From a virus (lineage: Duplodnaviria > Heunggongvirae > Uroviricota > Caudoviricetes): DNA of 11,888 nt. Of this stretch, positions 1-10,561 are shown in pieces (positions within the stretch are counted from its first letter, which is position 1; every line of letters begins with the position of its first letter). The notes beneath the pieces are model-generated. The model saw nothing but the letters and a program-made list of their open reading frames with translations. It made no database searches and was not told where the DNA came from. The translations under genes and the position numbers were made by a program. The stretch lies in IMG/VR virus record IMGVR_UViG_2896601577_000007, one strand, 5' to 3'.

Positions 1-519
1 TCATCGGTTCGTCTGAGAATGACGTGCAACTGCGCACGCGACACCCGGAGACAACGGCTGACTAAGCTTACTCCCCATCCCGGGCAATAAGGGCGCGTGC
101 GCTATCCACTTTTTTGCCCGTCCATATTCAACGGCTTCTTTGAGGAGTTCATTTTCCATCGTTTTCTTGCCGAGCAGGCGCTGGAGTTCTTTAATCTGCT
201 TCATGGCGGCAGCAAGTTCAGAGGCAGGAACAACCTGTTCTCCGGCGGCCACAGCAGTAAGACTTCCTTCCTGGTATTGCTTACGCCAGAGAAATAACTG
301 GCTGCTACACCATGTTGCCGGGCAACGAGGGAGACCGTCATCCCCGGTTCAAAGCTCTGCTGAACAATTGCGATCTTTTCCTGTGTGGTACGCCGTCTGC
401 GTTTCTCCGGCCCTAAGACATCAATCATCTGTACTCCAATGACTAGTCTAAAAACTAGTATTAAGACTATCACTTATTTAAGTGATACTGGTTGTCTGGA
501 GATTCAGGGGGCCAGTCTA
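1..519 (-). mobile_element. IS2 (IS3 family), partial copy: left end with terminal inverted repeat and insC/start of insD; the remainder lies beyond the window's left edge
   Basis: Reverse complement of 421..519 matches the IS2 left terminus as I recall it (TAGACTGGCCCCCTGAATCTCCAGACAACC...), ending at 519. Minus-strand ORFs carry InsC sequence ([44 protein letters not shown] and [57 protein letters not shown]) and an InsD segment ([27 protein letters not shown]). A6G slippery motif is present on the minus strand near 108..116. Confidence 0.9.
68..428 (-). pseudogene. insC: IS2 orfA (insC) remnant, reading frame broken
   Basis: The N-terminal 44 aa of InsC sit in the frame of ORF 201..473 and the remaining InsC sequence in the frame of ORF 1..252; the two frames switch near 297..300. 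ATG at 428. Confidence 0.7.
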
Positions 520-1839: not shown

Positions 1840-2289
1840 TTATTCTTCTGGCTGGCTGCTTTCCTCTGCCATGAAATTGAGTACATAGACGCGAATCTGT
1901 CGCCCATCCTCCCTTACTCGCCCCTGATAGCCTCGCCCGCTCGTTGGTGGTGTAAGCATTCCTGCATTCTTTAGAACTTCGGCAAACTGTTTGGTATTGA
2001 AGCCCTTTGCAATCTCCTGCTCAAACGCTGCCGGGAAGGTGTAGAAAATTATCGGGTCGCCGTCGTGGTTCCCCTTCTTCCTGTACCCGGCTAAATCACG
2101 GATGGGTAAATCGCGCGGGTCATAACCCAGCGGCGCGAATCGACTCAGCCCATAGGCATTCAAAAACGCCTCCGTCTGCTCAATAATCTGCTGGTGCTCT
2201 TTGTTCCCCGTGCCGAACTCACGCAACCACGCATTGTAGCTGTGCTGTATCGCATCACGGCACGTTTGATCATCCCAGCCAGTAACCAC
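1840..2289 (-). CDS. Primase/helicase C-terminal fragment (third frame segment)
   Basis: GTG-initiated track ORF with no convincing Shine-Dalgarno sequence; its frame is open upstream to about 2394, overlapping the end of the 2334..3890 ORF. Confidence 0.55.
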   Translation of the reverse strand: MVTGWDDQTCRDAIQHSYNAWLREFGTGNKEHQQIIEQTEAFLNAYGLSRFAPLGYDPRDLPIRDLAGYRKKGNHDGDPIIFYTFPAAFEQEIAKGFNTKQFAEVLKNAGMLTPPTSGRGYQGRVREDGRQIRVYVLNFMAEESSQPEE

Positions 2290-2333
2290 GCCACCCAGCA
2301 GTAAAGCAGCCTCCAGAATGGCGAACCTTGCCC

Positions 2334-3890
2334 CTACACGGTGAACCTGTTCCCATAGTCGGCAGGAATAAGACTGCGCCAGCGGGCTTCACAGTCACGA
2401 ACGGTATCAATGGCCTGCTGCTGGTGGCCTGCAAGCCATCTGATCCACTCCCGCCCGGCAGCGCCGTGATTGCTCTGCCACGCGGATTTTAATGCGTCTG
2501 CATGGTCTTTCCCTGTCTGGTGCTCATGAAAGCGCACCGCCTTACTTAACGGGATATTCAGCAGGCGCACCAGTTGCCCCGCTTTTGTCTTGCGTCCTGC
2601 GGAGGCAATGAACGTTTCTAAATCCATTTCCCCGGTGCTGATTGCCACGGTACGCCAGCGTTTTAGATCCCGATTTCCGCCTTCTTTCGCGCCCTGCAAT
2701 TTCCCTACGCCGTTAAACAGGGCATAGGCAGACTGAGAAACGCTTATCGGGTCTGCGCCCTGTCCGACTTCATCCAGCGGCATCAGTCCGTCATTGTGGG
2801 CGGCGGCCTCGTTTATCATCCCCAGCGCCGTCCCGTACCACGTCAGGCGCAAGGCATCAGGGTTCCCGTATAGACTGCTAGCCACGTTCTGCGTGGTTGT
2901 TTTCCCGGCGCTCGATTGCTCATAAAAATGAATCCCGAATCCGTCACGCTCTGCCACCCCGATTAATGGCGCTGCCAGTGCTGCGGCAATGCCTGTCATC
3001 ATCGCGTAGTTGCCGTATGCCAGCCGCGCGACACTGTTGCGCCAGCTTTCCGGCGTTCCTGCTACGGTATACCCGGCAGCGGCTGAACTGCGCCCGCTGA
3101 ACAAAACAGGCCGCTCAGGTGTGCCGATGATTTCCCCGTCCGGCATGATGTATGCCCCGCACTGCCAGCCTGTAGCATGAGCAACGCGCCACAATTCACG
3201 CGAGCCGCTCCGCTGTAGCCAGTCGGCAAGGATCGCCCGTAAACTGCTTTTGGTCGTGACGTTAACCCCACCAGCTTTCAGGGTGCGCCAGCCTTCACGC
3301 TCGCCAATATCAGCCAGCGGGATAGCCGCTGTTGTCGGTATGCCTGCACCGAATGCCAGCCATGAGATAATAAGATACTGATCTTTGTCGTCGCGTCCCG
3401 TGCCGATAACCTCCAACGGGGAACATAACCAGCTTTCAGCGTTGACGATCTCCCCGCTTTCCTTGTCCACCTTCGGCGTTACCCAGAAAACGCCATCTTT
3501 GCGGCTCTCAATGTGGGGTTTTAGTGGATCTTTCTCTGGATGGTCAGTTTTACCGCCCTCAATGGCTTGCAATCGCGGTTTCACGGCTTCCCCTTGAATC
3601 TGGTACATCGAATCGTTAAACGCAGCCGTAGCGACTTCCAGCCCGTTTTGCTGGCGGTAATCGTCCCAGTCGGCTTTGTAGTCTGTCGGCGGCAGCGCCA
3701 CCCAGCCAGCCACGGATAAGGCGGCTTTCTCTGCGGCATCTTTGCCCGTGTTCGCCTGGTCGTCCTGCTGGTGGTCGTTATCTGCGGCAATGATAATCTG
3801 CGTGGCTGGATATATCCGGCGCATCACTTCGGCAACGGGTAGCAGGTTGCCCGCGTCAATTGCTGCCACTGCCAGCGCGTCCGGGCGCAT
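2334..3890 (-). CDS. Primase/helicase central fragment: distal TOPRIM (DxD) plus P-loop region (DUF927-like)
   Basis: IIIAADNDHQ (TOPRIM DxD) 37 aa after the annotated Met, and a Walker-A-like SSAGKTTT. Its ATG overlaps the stop of the upstream fragment (TGATG). The frame upstream of the Met encodes LATALSVHL, which continues the TOPRIM motif. Confidence 0.85.
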   Translation of the reverse strand: MRPDALAVAAIDAGNLLPVAEVMRRIYPATQIIIAADNDHQQDDQANTGKDAAEKAALSVAGWVALPPTDYKADWDDYRQQNGLEVATAAFNDSMYQIQGEAVKPRLQAIEGGKTDHPEKDPLKPHIESRKDGVFWVTPKVDKESGEIVNAESWLCSPLEVIGTGRDDKDQYLIISWLAFGAGIPTTAAIPLADIGEREGWRTLKAGGVNVTTKSSLRAILADWLQRSGSRELWRVAHATGWQCGAYIMPDGEIIGTPERPVLFSGRSSAAAGYTVAGTPESWRNSVARLAYGNYAMMTGIAAALAAPLIGVAERDGFGIHFYEQSSAGKTTTQNVASSLYGNPDALRLTWYGTALGMINEAAAHNDGLMPLDEVGQGADPISVSQSAYALFNGVGKLQGAKEGGNRDLKRWRTVAISTGEMDLETFIASAGRKTKAGQLVRLLNIPLSKAVRFHEHQTGKDHADALKSAWQSNHGAAGREWIRWLAGHQQQAIDTVRDCEARWRSLIPADYGNRFTV

Positions 3891-4597
3891 CAGGTGAACT
3901 GAAAGGGCCGTCGCCAGCCCTCGGCAATTAAAACGCTCTGCGGCGATTCTGGCGCGTTTACGGCGTGATATGCCCCGCGCTTTGCTGAACCTGTCAGGAG
4001 TCGCTTCTCTCCCTGCGGTGTAATGGTTTGCGCTGCTGCCACTGCGCCGGATTCGTCCACCAGCTCCAGCAATAACGAACCATCCGGCATAACCGGATAG
4101 TTAAACCCGGTCAGCCCTTTTGATTGCAGGTAATCAGATTCGCCCTGTGTGGCACTCTGGCGCATTCCGGCATACAGATGGGCAAACGTAGCCCTTCGCT
4201 GCTCTGCGTCCTCTGCTGCCTGTTTCTGGCGCTCCTGCTCACGCTGCTGGCGGTCAGCTTCCAGTTGCTCTCTTCTATGGCTCGCTGCCGCCGGGTCGGT
4301 TTGCGCTGCCCGGTAATCAATACCCAGCACGTCAGCGGCAAGCTGTGCCGCCTCCGTGGTGTCGCAGTTGTTTACCCGCTTGATTAAATCCAGCCCGTCA
4401 CCAGCGCCACACTGGTTGCAGATAAAGCTACCGCGCCCGTTGTCGTCGAATCTGAAACGGTCTTTTCCACCACATGCAGGGCATGGAGAATGGCGGCGCG
4501 ATGAATCAGGCACGTCGATAGACAATTCAGCCAGCACATAAGGCCAGCGCCCTGCTGCGGCGCTGGTCACTTCGCGGATAAGGTCGATATTACGCAT
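3890..4597 (-). CDS. Primase N-terminal fragment: Zn-ribbon plus start of TOPRIM (catalytic Glu)
   Basis: CPACGGKDRFRFDDNGRGSFICNQCGAGDGLDLI is a P4 alpha-type primase zinc-binding motif; the fragment ends ...SVLIAEG then WRRPFQFT*. ATG at 4597 is preceded by AGGAGG; the track ORF extends to 4630. Confidence 0.85.
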   Translation of the reverse strand: MRNIDLIREVTSAAAGRWPYVLAELSIDVPDSSRRHSPCPACGGKDRFRFDDNGRGSFICNQCGAGDGLDLIKRVNNCDTTEAAQLAADVLGIDYRAAQTDPAAASHRREQLEADRQQREQERQKQAAEDAEQRRATFAHLYAGMRQSATQGESDYLQSKGLTGFNYPVMPDGSLLLELVDESGAVAAAQTITPQGEKRLLTGSAKRGAYHAVNAPESPQSVLIAEGWRRPFQFT

Positions 4598-4666
4598 GGT
4601 TGCCTCCTGCCACGGTCGCGCCCATATCATTAATCATGCTTTGCCATATCTCGCGCCCGATGTCAG

Positions 4667-6015: not shown

Positions 6016-6206
6016 TTTTCACCCCCAAGAATTACCAGCTCTGCACGGGCATCGTTAACCAAAGATGAGCACGCTTTAATCGCATCCACGACATCAGCAG
6101 CGTCCATTTCTTCAGCCGAAAGACTGACAGCAACCAGGACAGCCGCTGTTTGCTCGATTAATTGAAGTGCGGACGTAAGGCGAGGGGTATTAATTGAGTT
6201 ATTCAT
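6012..6206 (-). CDS. Hypothetical small protein (64 aa)
   Basis: ATG at 6206 preceded by a G-rich Shine-Dalgarno-like run, 8-nt overlap with the upstream gene's stop; the track ORF extends to 6263. Confidence 0.55.
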   Translation of the reverse strand: MNNSINTPRLTSALQLIEQTAAVLVAVSLSAEEMDAADVVDAIKACSSLVNDARAELVILGGEK

Positions 6207-6417
6207 TGGTTGCCCCCCGTTTTCCTGACATTTCGCCACCTTCCAGCAGGAAATGAACGTCACGAACGGCGAGATCCAATATCGCGAGTAACGCCTTCAG
6301 TTTTTCGTCTCGTGAGGGAGAGTTGCTCACCAGAATGTCATTAATCACTTCTGTCAGTGTGATGATCTGGCTTGTGCGTTCGAGGGGATCCATATGCACA
6401 TCGTAGGTTTTAATCAT
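6199..6417 (-). CDS. Hypothetical small protein (72 aa)
   Basis: ATG at 6417 preceded by GGAGGTG; overlaps the stop of the first operon gene by 8 nt; the track ORF extends to 6507. Confidence 0.6.
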   Translation of the reverse strand: MIKTYDVHMDPLERTSQIITLTEVINDILVSNSPSRDEKLKALLAILDLAVRDVHFLLEGGEMSGKRGATNE

Positions 6418-6604
6418 GTGCCACCTCCATGCGGATACGACCAGCAAAAAAGCAGACGTGATCGCGCACCAGAGAACGGCGAGCATCGCGTTCAGACTCG
6501 GCAGCAATATGATGAATTTTGGCGGTAATTGTCGGGCAATCGCGGCGAACTGCGGCGATAATCCAGATAAATTGCGGTTTTTGGGTAGGGGTAGTAGCCA
6601 GCAT
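6410..6604 (-). CDS. Hypothetical small protein (64 aa), first gene of the small-gene operon
   Basis: ATG at 6604 with AAGGAGG (rc of 6613..6619) 8 nt upstream (MLATTPTQKPQFIWIIAAVRRD...). This is the 3' end of the track ORF 6410..7165, which I do not accept as a single CDS. Confidence 0.6.
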   Translation of the reverse strand: MLATTPTQKPQFIWIIAAVRRDCPTITAKIHHIAAESERDARRSLVRDHVCFFAGRIRMEVAHD

Positions 6605-6631
6605 AGCGGCAGCCTCCTTTGTGTTTAAGGA

Positions 6632-6670
6632 GTCACCGCCTGAGTTTCCACGCTCTGAAATGGCGGTGAC
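6632..6670 (-). promoter_or_regulatory. 9-bp-stem hairpin in the 5' leader, just upstream of the Shine-Dalgarno sequence of the first operon gene
   Basis: GTCACCGCC (6632..6640) and GGCGGTGAC (6662..6670) are perfect inverted repeats around a 21-nt loop; a 5-bp stem with UUCG loop on the minus-strand RNA lies at 6711..6724. Confidence 0.35.
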
Positions 6671-6793
6671 GTTAGCAGGGGTGGAAATACCGGACACAAA
6701 GGAAACCGGCCTACGCGAACGTAGCCCCACTAACGCCACCATTGATACAGTACGGACTAGGCCGCTGATTTGATGTGCGTAGTGATCGGACAC

Positions 6794-6816
6794 AAAAAAA
6801 GACGCTTTCGGCGTCT
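6794..6816 (-). terminator. Intrinsic-terminator-like hairpin followed by a U-run (minus strand)
   Basis: Minus-strand RNA reads AGACGC-CGAAA-GCGUCU followed by UUUUUU (plus-strand A-run 6794..6799). Confidence 0.5.
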
Positions 6817-7103
6817 GTGTCGCCCTGAGTGTGTTCGGGTTTCCACGCCCGGTTGCTGATTTTGCAGCAACGCTTGGACTATAACAGCTTTTCTCTGCTA
6901 GGTGGTCATACCAGATAAAACCGTAACCCTTTAAGAGTTTTTCCTGTGCACGGCTCACCATCTTTTTGTTGAGGGTAAGCGCCTCGCGTACTGGTAACGG
7001 AACTCCGGGCGCTGCGGTATCAATATCAGGTTTTATAAGGTTGTAAGGGTTAACATTTGTTAACAGGCCAGCCAGATTAAAGGCTTCTTTCTGGGCGGCA
7101 GGT

Positions 7104-7286
7104 TCATTCAGTATCACGGCGCACCTCCACGAACTCATTAACGAATCTCTCCAAAGGCTGAACACATGGCGACTGATAGCCCTCGCGGTAAAAGGTCACT
7201 CGGTTATGCTCGACGCGCTCAACGGTCACTACAGCCCCGTGCGAATCCTTGTAACGGCTTCCCGGCATCGGATTGTGGTTACGCAT
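7104..7286 (-). CDS. Hypothetical small protein (60 aa)
   Basis: GGAGG 5 nt upstream of ATG 7286; overlaps the stop of the upstream 50-aa ORF by 8 nt. Confidence 0.55.
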   Translation of the reverse strand: MRNHNPMPGSRYKDSHGAVVTVERVEHNRVTFYREGYQSPCVQPLERFVNEFVEVRRDTE

Positions 7287-7431
7287 GGTTTACCTCCAGA
7301 CGTTTAGCGAGCCAGCGTTGCGACAGGCGGGTGAGTTCTCCTTTGCGCTGCTCATATTCCATGCCCATATCAATTAACGTGATATTGGTGCTTTCGAGAT
7401 AGGCGAGGTGTTCAAGCTGTGCTGCGTTCAT
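7279..7431 (-). CDS. Hypothetical small protein (50 aa), below the ORF-track length cutoff
   Basis: Hand translation of the minus strand: MNAAQLEHLAYLESTNITLIDMGMEYEQRKGELTRLSQRWLAKRLEVNHA; its stop overlaps the 7104..7286 start region. Confidence 0.4.
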   Translation of the reverse strand: MNAAQLEHLAYLESTNITLIDMGMEYEQRKGELTRLSQRWLAKRLEVNHA

Positions 7432-7470
7432 GCTGTCCCGTGGTTCGCCAGTAATGCCATTTGCCTGCGC

Positions 7471-8088
7471 TCACTGCTTCGCCGTCATGCCACCCAGCAC
7501 GATACGGGCGATCATGTTGCTCTCGTTGCTGTAGTGGCGCTGCTGCGTCGTTTTGCCCATCTCGGCACGGGCCATATTCAGCGCATCGCACATTGGCTTA
7601 AAGTTGTTTGCGGCACTGAGACGGGCTTTTAGCTGGCGACGATAGCGGGCGGCGATTTCAGGCACGCTACGCTGTAATTCTTCCTCGCACTGGATGAAAT
7701 AACGGCGGATAGCGCGGCCCTGCTCGTTGCGTTCAACCATTGCCACTTCTTTAGCCATATCCAGCGATAGCAGGTAATCATGCTCTATTTGCTGGCGAGT
7801 TTTTGCGCTCGCCCGTTTTGGCGTGCTCAAATTTTCAACACGGATAAAATCGGTTCCGGCAATAAAACCGTACTGGTCAATTCGGCCTTTAATCCAGTTA
7901 GTAAAGTCGCGGCCCACCCCCAGCGCTTTATGCAACGCCTTAGCGCTCACAATATTGGCTTCACGCCCGCCAATGCGTCCGGCAATAACGGGAACAATAG
8001 CGGCAAAGTCGTTGCCGTTAATTACTCCCGTGTTAACGTTGGGTTGCGGGGCGGCCCCCGAACTGAATCGGCTTTTTTCGATAGTCAT
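7471..8088 (-). CDS. Phage antirepressor-like protein (AntA-type N-terminal domain)
   Basis: VSAKALHKALGVGRDFTNWIKGRIDQYGFIAGTDFI resembles the AntA/antirepressor motif. ATG 8088 is preceded by GGAG; the track ORF extends to 8148 and would overlap the upstream gene. Confidence 0.7.
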   Translation of the reverse strand: MTIEKSRFSSGAAPQPNVNTGVINGNDFAAIVPVIAGRIGGREANIVSAKALHKALGVGRDFTNWIKGRIDQYGFIAGTDFIRVENLSTPKRASAKTRQQIEHDYLLSLDMAKEVAMVERNEQGRAIRRYFIQCEEELQRSVPEIAARYRRQLKARLSAANNFKPMCDALNMARAEMGKTTQQRHYSNESNMIARIVLGGMTAKQ

Positions 8089-8101
8089 ATTTTCGGCTCC
8101 G

Positions 8102-8533
8102 TTATGCGGCGGTGAGATTGTCCGGGTATAGATTGAGAATGTCGGCAATTTCAGGCTGAGAAAGTCCCTGATAGCCGCCAGCGTCGGCGTTATGGTTCAC
8201 AAGCCGAATAACTTTTAGAACGTCACCGCGCCCGGTAAAGCGATAGCGTAAATGTGGCCCTATCCCGTCGGGGTTCTTTTCGTCTATACGCTCAAGCTGA
8301 ATATCAAGCCTGCGCTCTAACTCGCTGGCGTAGTTCCTTCCAGACGAAAGGCGGCAATAACGCAGAATGTCATTTTCTGTCCATCCCTCTATACCAGTAC
8401 GCAGCATATAGACTCTGGCACGATGCTTTTTCGGTGTGCGCTTTGGTGCTTGAAGGGATTTTGTAAGGGGCGTAACATCAGATACGCGAATATCTGAATT
8501 AGCCGCCTGTAATGGGCGGTTTTTCTTTTCCAT
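8102..8533 (-). CDS. Hypothetical protein (143 aa), translationally coupled to alpA
   Basis: Its start shares one nucleotide with the alpA stop (TGATG). Confidence 0.6.
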   Translation of the reverse strand: MEKKNRPLQAANSDIRVSDVTPLTKSLQAPKRTPKKHRARVYMLRTGIEGWTENDILRYCRLSSGRNYASELERRLDIQLERIDEKNPDGIGPHLRYRFTGRGDVLKVIRLVNHNADAGGYQGLSQPEIADILNLYPDNLTAA

Positions 8534-8736
8534 CAGGCCACCTTCCCGCGGCGTTCTGCCAGCCAGTTGTGAATCTCAACCGCATCAAACGCAGTTATTT
8601 TTTCTCCCAGCTTTACCGGACGTGGTAGTGAACCGTTTCTTACTTTACGGTCGATGGTGGATACACTAACGCCCAGCAATTCAGCCAGGCGGAAGCGTCT
8701 GATATAGCCTTTTGTAGGGATAGTGTCGATGTTCAT
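8533..8736 (-). CDS. alpA: AlpA/Vis-family helix-turn-helix transcriptional regulator
   Basis: 67 aa; RFRLAELLGVSVSTIDRKVRNGSLPRPVKLGEKITAFDAVEIHNWL is a typical AlpA (P4 Vis / CP4-57 AlpA) signature. Confidence 0.9.
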   Translation of the reverse strand: MNIDTIPTKGYIRRFRLAELLGVSVSTIDRKVRNGSLPRPVKLGEKITAFDAVEIHNWLAERRGKVA

Positions 8737-8822
8737 GATTCCCGTAACCTCTTAGCGATAGTTGTTGCTTCGTTACGGGGATTTAATGGCGTGCACGCTC
8801 AAAAAGGAATGATCGTATTTTT

Positions 8823-9410: not shown

Positions 9411-9465
9411 GGTAATGCTGCCAACTTACTGATTTAGTGTATGATGGTGATTTTAAGGTGCTTGC

Positions 9466-9741
9466 GTGGCTTCCATTTCCATCAGATGTCCTTCCTGCTC
9501 CGCTACTGAAGGCGTGGTGCGTAACGGCAAAAGCACTGCCGGACATCAGCGCTATCTCTGCTCTCATTGCCGTAAAACATGGCAACTACAGTTCACTTAC
9601 ACCGCCTCTCAGCCCGGTACGCACCAGAAAATCATTGATATGGCCATGAATGGCGTCGGATGTCGCGCCAGTGCACGCATTATGGGCGTTGGCCTCAACA
9701 CGGTTTTACGTCACTTAAAAAACTCAGGCCGCAGTCGGTAA
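9466..9741 (+). CDS. insA: IS1 InsA (91 aa, GTG start)
   Basis: [66 protein letters not shown]... closely matches IS1 InsA. Confidence 0.9.
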
Positions 9742-10163
9742 CCTCGCGCATACAACCGGGCAGTGATGTGATTGTCTGCGCTGAAATGGACGAACAGTGG
9801 GGCTACGTCGGTGCTAAATCACGTCAGCGCTGGCTGTTTTACGCGTATGACAGGATACGGAGGAGGGTTGTGGCGCACGTCTTCGGTGAACGCACTCTGG
9901 CCACACTGGAGCGTCTTCTGAGCCTGCTGTCGGCCTTTGAGGTCGTGGTATGGATGACGGATGGCTGGCCGCTGTATGAATCACGCCTGAAGGGAAAGCT
10001 GCACGTTATCAGCAAGCGTTACACTCAGCGCATTGAGCGACATAATCTGAATCTGAGACAACATCTGGCAAGGCTGGGACGGAAGTCACTGTCGTTCTCA
10101 AAATCGGTGGAGCTGCATGACAAGGTCATCGGGCATTATCTGAACATAAAACACTATCAGTAA
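9660..10163 (+). CDS. insB: IS1 InsB (167 aa), transposase catalytic part
   Basis: ...[58 protein letters not shown]...[13 protein letters not shown] matches IS1 InsB with several substitutions. Confidence 0.9.
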
Positions 10164-10473: not shown

Positions 10474-10505
10474 TGCGTCACCTTTTACGCTGCGCCTTAT
10501 TTTGT

Positions 10506-10561
10506 GATTGAGCCAGGCGGTAAGGCTTCCCGCTTTTCGCCCCGTCGAGCTAGGCTCAATC
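10506..10561. repeat. 9-bp inverted repeat GATTGAGCC / GGCTCAATC separated by 38 nt, between the int stop and the cargo gene start
   Basis: Perfect 9-bp arms at 10506..10514 and 10553..10561; no flanking U-run on either strand. Confidence 0.4.

Follow-up and report, generated by a model that had tools for sequence, protein, structure and literature searches.

A probable P4-type RNA immunity region in a satellite-like prophage, with a long reading frame that appears to be kept open across structured RNAs

What does a long open reading frame (ORF) encode when it reads through a terminator, several RNA hairpins and the translation start of a smaller gene? The question is raised by the minus strand of IMGVR_UViG_2896601577_000007, an IMG/VR virus record assigned to the Caudoviricetes and analyzed here at its full length of 11,888 nucleotides (the window). 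The longest listed form of the ORF (6410..7165, 756 nt) is present on that strand as 251 amino acids (aa) from an early GTG, in an open frame that begins at 7195. The initial annotation took it for a structured non-coding leader rather than one gene. The structured RNAs are indeed real. The ORF, however, is the counterpart of the P4 gene eta, with a kil gene nested within it, and its frame is kept open. The region therefore appears to be a structured RNA leader and, at the same time, a reading frame that is maintained, in agreement with what has been published for P4 eta. It is probably the immunity (lysogeny-maintenance) switch of a prophage that is a P4-like satellite or resembles the phage-inducible chromosomal islands (PICIs), built as in P4. 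It adds a further example, with specificity segments (a' and b') of its own, to the P4-type immunity system and to three curated Rfam families, and is not a new kind of system.

The location had already been likened to the place where P4-type elements carry RNA-based immunity, with a small regulatory RNA as one possibility, and a covariance-model search had been proposed. Against Rfam, this search returned three minus-strand matches, each scoring above the gathering threshold of its family (E-values 7e-15, 3e-14 and 7e-12): a C4 antisense RNA, an isrK-type short RNA and a c4-a1b1 target motif, arranged as in P4 (Table 1). C4 is composed of a 17-bp basal stem, a first hairpin with a UUCG loop (6724..6711), a second hairpin carrying b' in its loop, and the single-stranded segment a'. 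The isrK match includes two hairpins, the b1 site and then an intrinsic terminator (stem 6816..6800, T-run to 6795), a GC-rich structure which is the only terminator-like site in a scan of 6300..7500. The a1b1 motif lies upstream of C4 and ends 86 nt before its start. Beyond C4, a hairpin with a 9-bp stem presents a2 at its tip. Its 5' arm is also the 3' strand of the C4 basal stem, so that it competes with the bottom 7 bp of C4 and the two folds are mutually exclusive in the unprocessed transcript. Most of these structures had been noticed from the letters alone. The terminator-like hairpin with its U-run (then placed at 6794..6816) proves to be the 3' hairpin of isrK and the UUCG hairpin is hairpin 1 of C4; the 9-bp hairpin and the AAGGAGG and in-frame ATG (6604) of a 64-aa gene inside the ORF are also present. 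The first in-frame ATG had been misplaced at 6961, since one is found at 7138..7136.

For the comparative analysis, 99 loci were gathered by searching solely for relatives of the 64-aa protein, so that neither the condition of the long ORF nor that of the RNAs biases the sample. The search also took in two further E. coli copies, L001 and L002, both near-identical. The sequences upstream of the small gene form 32 clusters at 90% identity. Counts given below were mostly made over 42 diverse loci, the whole set being 103 sequences. Of 40 representatives, Rfam identified C4 in every one and isrK in 39, and a covariance model built from the representatives found a single C4 in each of 100 loci, located every time immediately before the small gene. 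The folds are supported by covariation, which was controlled by 500 shuffles and, for C4, by sliding the 3' partner by 1-3 columns. In C4, 99.3% of the cells are paired over the 42 loci (33-53% in the slid controls) and 17 of the 27 pairs have changed on both sides; its 3' end is conserved as ..CACC(G/A)CCA. The isrK hairpins are paired in 93.8% of the cells (40 loci), with 8 of 18 pairs changed on both sides. None of the shuffles was as high in either case. The hairpin 6670..6632 is likewise conserved and covaries in the 42 loci: 96% of the cells are paired, a percentage reached in 0 of 500 shuffles, and 7 of its 12 pairs have changed on both sides.

The two short segments of C4 are complementary to duplicated targets (Table 1). 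The b2 site takes in the AAGGAGG Shine-Dalgarno sequence of the 64-aa gene and is the counterpart of P4 seqC and of P1 b2. The specificity segments are highly diverse, with 26 b' loops and 12 a' segments in 31 combinations among the 42 loci, and in each locus the cognate targets are complementary at fixed positions. The b'-b2 duplex has a mean length of 10.2 nt for cognate and 5.4 nt for non-cognate partners; for b'-b1 the means are 8.3 and 4.6 nt. The a'-a1 and a'-a2 duplexes measure 7 nt in every locus. Co-variation of the upstream a1 and b1 sites with C4 is seen in 41 loci. The most variable stretch of the whole region lies just 5' of the Shine-Dalgarno sequence, in b2, yet it is always complementary to its cognate b'. 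The homologous region of E. coli X14-3 (L103:1426-2196) is 91% identical to that of the window and has the same b', while a1, a' and a2 switch together from GUGGAAA to UUGGAAC. The two antisense sites therefore behave as separate modules in this comparison, which suggests that they are independent determinants of specificity. Immunity specificity may thus be a modular two-site code (a x b), with at least 31 combinations in enterobacterial satellites.

The 64-aa gene shares frame and stop with the long ORF. It matches the NCBIfam profile NF033153 (phage_ICD_like; 68 bits for a cut-off of 25) over residues 199-246 of the long ORF, that is, over the nested gene, and its product is 44% identical to P4 Kil (E 4e-11). 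The ratio of nonsynonymous to synonymous change (pN/pS) is 0.33 for this gene (41 sequences). The start of the long ORF can be placed at GTG 7117, which is preceded by GGAGG (7128..7124) with a 6-nt spacer. Database proteins 99% identical to it start at the same position (235 aa, P0002). Here the final 14 nt of the preceding DUF4222 gene overlap the ORF start. The Prokaryotic Genome Annotation Pipeline (PGAP) places an equivalent start, with the same 14-nt overlap, in L002 and L104. Translational coupling is therefore possible.

The long ORF aligns collinearly with P4 Eta from the a1b1 motif to its end (38% identity, E 9e-21). It matches the Pfam profile PF10554 (Phage_ASH; 83.1 bits, gathering score 26) over residues 95-198 of the 251-aa form, corresponding to 6883..6572. 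P4 Eta gives 82.2 bits over residues 37-161 (8704..8330). In both elements this match coincides with the a1b1-C4-a2b2 region and the first kil codons. Homologues in the databases, 234-305 aa long and called Icd-like or ash family, share the first ~30 aa and the translation of the RNA region. For the N-terminal part (7117..6887; 78 codons if counted to 6885), a search of viral contigs gave no relatives. Between the window and L103 it has ~150 identical nt and, further 5', 12 changes without codon-position bias. In six homologues (P0020, P0027, P0039, P0044, P0060 and P0093), unrelated inserts of ~30-100 aa separate the shared N-terminus (window 6887..7117) from the RNA-region translation. In P0011 and L103, the N-terminus of the AntA gene is fused directly to the long ORF, and antA and DUF4222 are missing. 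The annotation of the close copies is also heterogeneous. L001:6684-7438 differs by two indels of 1 nt near the beginning of the 64-aa gene and PGAP calls the whole ORF a frameshifted Icd-like pseudogene; L002 is annotated with an incomplete 'ash family protein' and a separate Icd-like gene. In L096:2136-3557 the long ORF is extended to 474 codons, its last part being a fragment with a match to Phage_integrase; the copy is probably rearranged or degenerate.

Is the long frame maintained, and if so, for what? Relative to C4, the frame that is open in the window is stop-free from upstream of isrK to the ATG of the small gene in 41 of the 42 loci, against 1-8 stops in each of the other two frames. 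Two stretches of this region are variable and match no Rfam model. In the isrK-to-C4 spacer there are 0 stops in 748 codons of the ORF phase and 32 and 24 in the other phases; between the end of C4 and the ATG there are 0 in 758 codons and 28 and 51, respectively. The isrK-to-C4 distance (Rfam coordinates of 41 loci and P4) is 98, 101, 125, 128, 131 or 140 nt in the loci and reaches 185 nt in P4; each of these values leaves a remainder of 2 on division by 3. The sole exception, 139 nt, occurs in L080, the one locus with a broken ORF. The start of the long ORF is always upstream of the internal promoter (see below) in the loci compared. The C4-to-ATG distance, in contrast, varies by single nucleotides (138-145 nt), and the long ORF is accordingly in frame with the small gene in some loci and offset from it in others. 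In the offset loci the long ORF continues into the next gene: the +1 frame across the small gene is open beyond the stop of that gene in 17 of 17 offset representatives and in 6 of the 25 in-frame ones (Fisher p = 5e-7). Over all 103 sequences, 56 are offset and 47 in frame; a clear break of the ORF is seen only in L080, and two more are cut by contig ends. In the window itself (6199..6624, minus strand), no stop interrupts the +1 frame (counted from that of the 64-aa gene) anywhere in this gene, and the frame continues into the next ORF, 6199..6507.

The encoded peptide behaves differently. In the ORF frame, pN/pS is 1.10 over C4 and 1.43 over a1b1, with values of 0.68-0.89 in the other frames. 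The purifying selection on amino acids that is expected of a protein domain is thus not seen in the Phage_ASH region, in contrast to the 0.33 of the icd-like gene. The synonymous-biased substitution that would have spoken for a conserved protein is equally absent from the RNA part. The comparison of ORF and hairpin conservation, also proposed in the initial annotation, gives a divided answer: the hairpins covary and the peptide is not conserved, but the frame is conserved too. An open frame with frame-preserving indels, together with a pN/pS of ~1.1-1.4, indicates that the frame appears to be selected to stay open whereas the RNA sets its sequence. Put most simply, selection would keep the frame translatable while its sequence is dictated by the RNA.

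This organization is that of P4 (NC_001609), where C4 (8507..8420), isrK (8692..8615) and a1b1 (8705..8653; 44.1 bits, just under the gathering score) all fall within an ORF of 214 aa (8812..8168) that ends in the 65 codons of kil. The order of the elements is the same and the start of C4 is 142 nt from the small-gene ATG in both. Both have a Kil homologue of 64 or 65 aa and a primase operon downstream, and in both the collinear long ORF overlaps the gene before it and begins upstream of the internal promoter. According to the summary of Forti et al. 1999 given in PMC10111431, P4 eta holds a constitutive internal promoter, CI and seqA, and Kil is a truncated product. Full-length Eta is described there as made only from the upstream late promoter, through translational coupling to the preceding gene, and its translation as preventing termination. 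Pairing of CI with seqA and seqC, and terminator read-through at isrK, have been reported (PMC4825925); the same authors regard P4 SeqA as a structural homologue of IsrK. The two elements differ in their specificity segments, a' and b' being ATTTCCAC and TTTCCTTTGTGT in the window and ATTCTCAC and TATCCTGTGAAG in P4, and they are presumably hetero-immune. They differ also in the upstream genes (antA and DUF4222 in the window, ORF88/vis in P4), in the isrK-to-C4 spacer (125 and 185 nt), and in the window's lack of a -35 box, its degenerate b1 and the unrelated N-terminal part of its ORF. P4 gave no DNA-level match in a search of the phage collection, and the comparison was made from its own record.

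A putative internal promoter is found at the conserved position directly upstream of isrK, with TATAGT at 6883..6878 and TG at 6886..6885. In an alignment of the 50 nt upstream of isrK (33 distinct loci and P4), the pattern of most loci, shared by P4, is TTGCCx followed after 18 nt by TATGGT or TATAGT. The window, L009 and their relatives retain only TATAGT with the TG before it. Transcription would start at ~6871, the first base of the isrK model. The RNA families, folds, complementarities with their co-variation, Shine-Dalgarno occlusion by b'-b2, nested layout and frame maintenance were computed here; RNA processing, Rho-dependent termination, a1/b1 feedback or titration and anti-termination by translation are taken from P4, P1 and Gifsy-1. 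C4-type RNAs (P1 C4 and P4 CI) are reported to be excised from a longer precursor by RNase P and 3' trimming. In the immune state, transcription from the internal promoter would often end at the terminator, yielding a 77-nt isrK/seqA-type RNA with a1 and b1. Read-through transcripts would contain C4, which by analogy would be excised and accumulate. Its a' segment and b' loop would then pair with a2 and b2, and, since b2 contains the Shine-Dalgarno sequence of the kil/icd-like gene, this pairing would block translation of that gene. The untranslated RNA would be terminated in a Rho-dependent manner, as in the CI-dependent premature termination (timm) of P4-type systems, which translation of kil/eta relieves, and the downstream replication genes kept silent. 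The maintained open frame lends indirect support to this part of the scheme. C4 could also pair with the upstream a1/b1 sites, for feedback or titration. With its start ahead of the internal promoter, in the overlap with DUF4222, the long ORF can be translated only from transcripts that arrive from further upstream. In the induced state, ribosomes crossing it would open up the terminator and the paired RNAs and exclude Rho, making expression insensitive to immunity. What would matter is the open frame and not the peptide.

Several observations weigh against an active switch of this kind. The window, L009 and their relatives have no -35 box, which nearly all other relatives possess, and a strict consensus promoter scan of 6300..7500 found none. 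The b1 pairing is weak in the window (Table 1), and the Rho-dependent terminator was not located. The loci are related to each other, so the open-frame counts are not independent events. Moreover, the element looks decayed, with an IS1 copy beside the integrase and a primase in at least two ORFs, and the switch may control nothing now.

Among the other explanations, two concern the nature of the ORF itself. It might be an accident within a purely non-coding leader, never translated upstream of ATG 6604. A pN/pS of ~1.1-1.4 over C4 and a1b1, the in-frame stops of L080 and the occasional PGAP call of a frameshifted or incomplete pseudogene are in keeping with this, but it would leave unexplained ~1500 ORF-phase codons without a stop where the other phases show 24-51 per segment, the spacer indels in multiples of three and the alternative frame that is open across icd in all the offset loci. 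Together with the P4 genetics summarized in PMC10111431, these make an accidental ORF very improbable. Conversely, Ash/Eta could function as an independent protein domain, a 'Bro network' regulator whose DNA happens to be shared with the RNAs. PMC10111431 places it among the Bro-network domains, annotation of the ORF as a protein is widespread, the profile match is strong (83 bits) and the first ~30 aa are conserved among homologues. However, the match is exactly the a1b1-C4-a2b2 region plus the first kil codons, in the window as in P4, and no purifying selection on amino acids is seen there. Compensatory changes in the stems and the hypervariable a and b sites rewrite the peptide, and the downstream partner of the ORF differs between in-frame and offset loci. 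We consider an autonomous protein domain improbable.

The remaining two explanations accept the RNAs and assign them another role. In Gifsy-1 of Salmonella, the IsrK-orf45-anrP locus (RF01394; STnc1160) has a short terminated RNA, a read-through transcript and a processed stable RNA downstream, an arrangement also predicted here. An ORF overlaps the stable RNA, with a conserved nucleotide and a variable amino-acid sequence (PMC4825925), which parallels the pN/pS of ~1 in the window. The short RNA of the window (6871..6795) might similarly act in trans on the read-through transcript or on C4 and switch on translation of the downstream small gene, which would make it a regulator and not just a passive target. 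The strong isrK match and terminator, the complementarity of a1/b1 to C4 and the demonstration of this mechanism for IsrK-orf45-anrP (PMC4825925) argue for such activation. In Gifsy-1, however, the controlled gene encodes the antirepressor-like AnrP, which the short RNA was shown to activate, whereas here it is kil/icd-like and followed by replication genes as in P4, and the b1 pairing is weak. IsrK-type activation is doubtful, although it would be compatible with a P4-type switch rather than exclusive of it. The immI operon of P1/P7 (c4, a1b1/a2b2 and icd) shares the same RNA fold (RF01695, RF03163), both families having been defined on these phages, and has two short antisense segments facing duplicated targets, the downstream one over the ribosome-binding site of an Icd-like gene. 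There C4 represses icd translation and thereby silences a translationally coupled antirepressor. A search of the phage collection at the DNA level gave only ~70% matches to the P1-like phages RCS47 and D6 (over the C4-icd stretch) and to lambdoid Rha/antirepressor regions, and the island does carry an AntA-domain gene. This gene lies upstream of the RNA region, however, and not downstream of icd, where small ORFs and a P4-type primase are found. The nested long ORF and the gene order match P4, in a satellite-type island rather than a P1-like plasmid prophage. A P1-type immI circuit was rejected as best fit because no antirepressor gene lies downstream, and it is the least credible of these explanations.

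The P4-type switch is placed in a fitting context. The surrounding genes fit a P4-like or PICI-like satellite prophage. Pfam and Rfam profile searches identified an arm-type tyrosine integrase of the P4 type, AlpA, AntA and DUF4222 upstream, together with an int-alpA RNA, and, downstream, primase ORFs of the P4 alpha type (Zn_Ribbon_Prim, Toprim_3 and DUF927, split) on the same strand as the RNA region and a single-stranded DNA-binding protein (SSB). The int-alpA RNA motif recurs in the related loci L047 and L098. The inserted IS1 copy separates the integrase side of the island from its alpA side; the relatives L001 and L002 lack it. The primase is a single intact gene of 920 aa in L001; in the window it is split, the Toprim_3 match in ORF 2334..3890 beginning at profile position 19, and the element is probably replication-defective. 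L001, 97% identical, adjoins tRNA-Thr and proA in an E. coli chromosome (NZ_CM148361.1). At the edge of the window (1..473), overlapping ORFs resemble fragments of insertion-sequence transposases, for example a coiled-coil orfA-like peptide on the minus strand.

Table 1. Positions and properties of the RNA elements, pairing sites and genes in the window
Feature	Position	Strand	Properties
Long eta-like ORF	6410..7117	-	235 aa from GTG 7117; spans all RNA elements; ends at the nested-gene stop
kil/icd-like gene	6410..6604	-	64 aa + stop; own Shine-Dalgarno AAGGAGG 6619..6613; ATG 6604
Putative internal constitutive promoter (counterpart of P4 PLE / PisrK)	6886..6878	-	Extended -10 TGtTATAGT
c4-a1b1 target motif (counterpart of P4 seqA)	6884..6832	-	RF03163, 55.1 bits (gathering score 46.7)
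isrK-type short RNA	6871..6795	-	RF01394, 72.1 bits (gathering score 50); model 1-77 of 77
C4 / P4-CI-type antisense RNA	6746..6659	-	RF01695, 80.3 bits (gathering score 45); model 1-87 of 87
a2-presenting hairpin	6670..6632	-	9-bp stem GUCACCGCC / GGCGGUGAC; a2 at tip
b' x b2	b' 6705..6694; b2 6624..6613	-	b' UUUCCUUUGUGU; b2 ACACAAAGGAGG; 12-bp duplex, -15.0 kcal/mol
a' x a2	a' 6688..6681; a2 6651..6645	-	a' AUUUCCAC; a2 GUGGAAA; 7 bp, -8.9 kcal/mol
a' x a1	a1 6846..6840	-	a1 GUGGAAA, loop of second isrK hairpin; 7 bp, -8.9 kcal/mol
b' x b1	b1 6832..6823	-	Interrupted 4+4 duplex, -8.1 kcal/mol
DUF4222 gene	7104..7286	-	Pfam DUF4222, 80.9 bits; upstream of long ORF
antA (AntA domain)	7471..8148		Upstream of RNA region
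Split primase	1840..4630	-	3890..4630 Zn_Ribbon_Prim; 2334..3890 Toprim_3 + DUF927; 1840..2289
IS1 copy	9437..10163	+	InsA-like ORF 9466..9741; DDE_Tnp_IS1 ORF 9660..10163
int-alpA RNA	10494..10560	-	RF02996, 60.6 bits; just downstream of integrase gene

The layout integrase, AlpA, antirepressor, 'Ash family protein' and primase is also that of Gram-negative PICIs and EcCIMP1-like islands of E. coli, from which the window copy differs by its IS1 and split primase. E. coli MP1 has a 99% identical counterpart of the icd region, the 3' part of the query. Hits to C4 and isrK have already been reported in Gram-negative PICIs (PMC10111431), as has the conservation of the Ash family protein in such islands (PMC11773190). 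These papers treat Ash as a protein and include no analysis of the co-variation of RNA and target or of the behavior of the frame. That Phage_ASH conservation would be driven by RNA with the frame kept open, and that in-frame and offset exits would both be common, seems not to have been stated in the literature consulted. For the 'Ash' family as a whole (PF10554; 230-300 aa), we consider it an evenly balanced question whether this is a protein domain of the usual kind. Its conservation may instead be entirely that of the seqA/isrK-C4-seqC RNAs. The frame may be stop-free only for ribosomes that come from upstream and override immunity, with an exit into kil or, after a 1-nt shift, into the next gene, and with a modular a x b code.

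In public genomes the long ORF goes under conflicting names ('Icd-like', 'ash family', 'frameshifted pseudogene' and, in one case, 'fructokinase') and the RNAs that would determine immunity are left unannotated. Recognizing the eta/kil and C4 layout would allow hetero-immune satellites to be predicted from their a' and b' sequences, and it would explain why the long ORF is conserved. The region would also be a clear case in nature of a reading frame that seems to be kept for the transit of ribosomes and not for its product.

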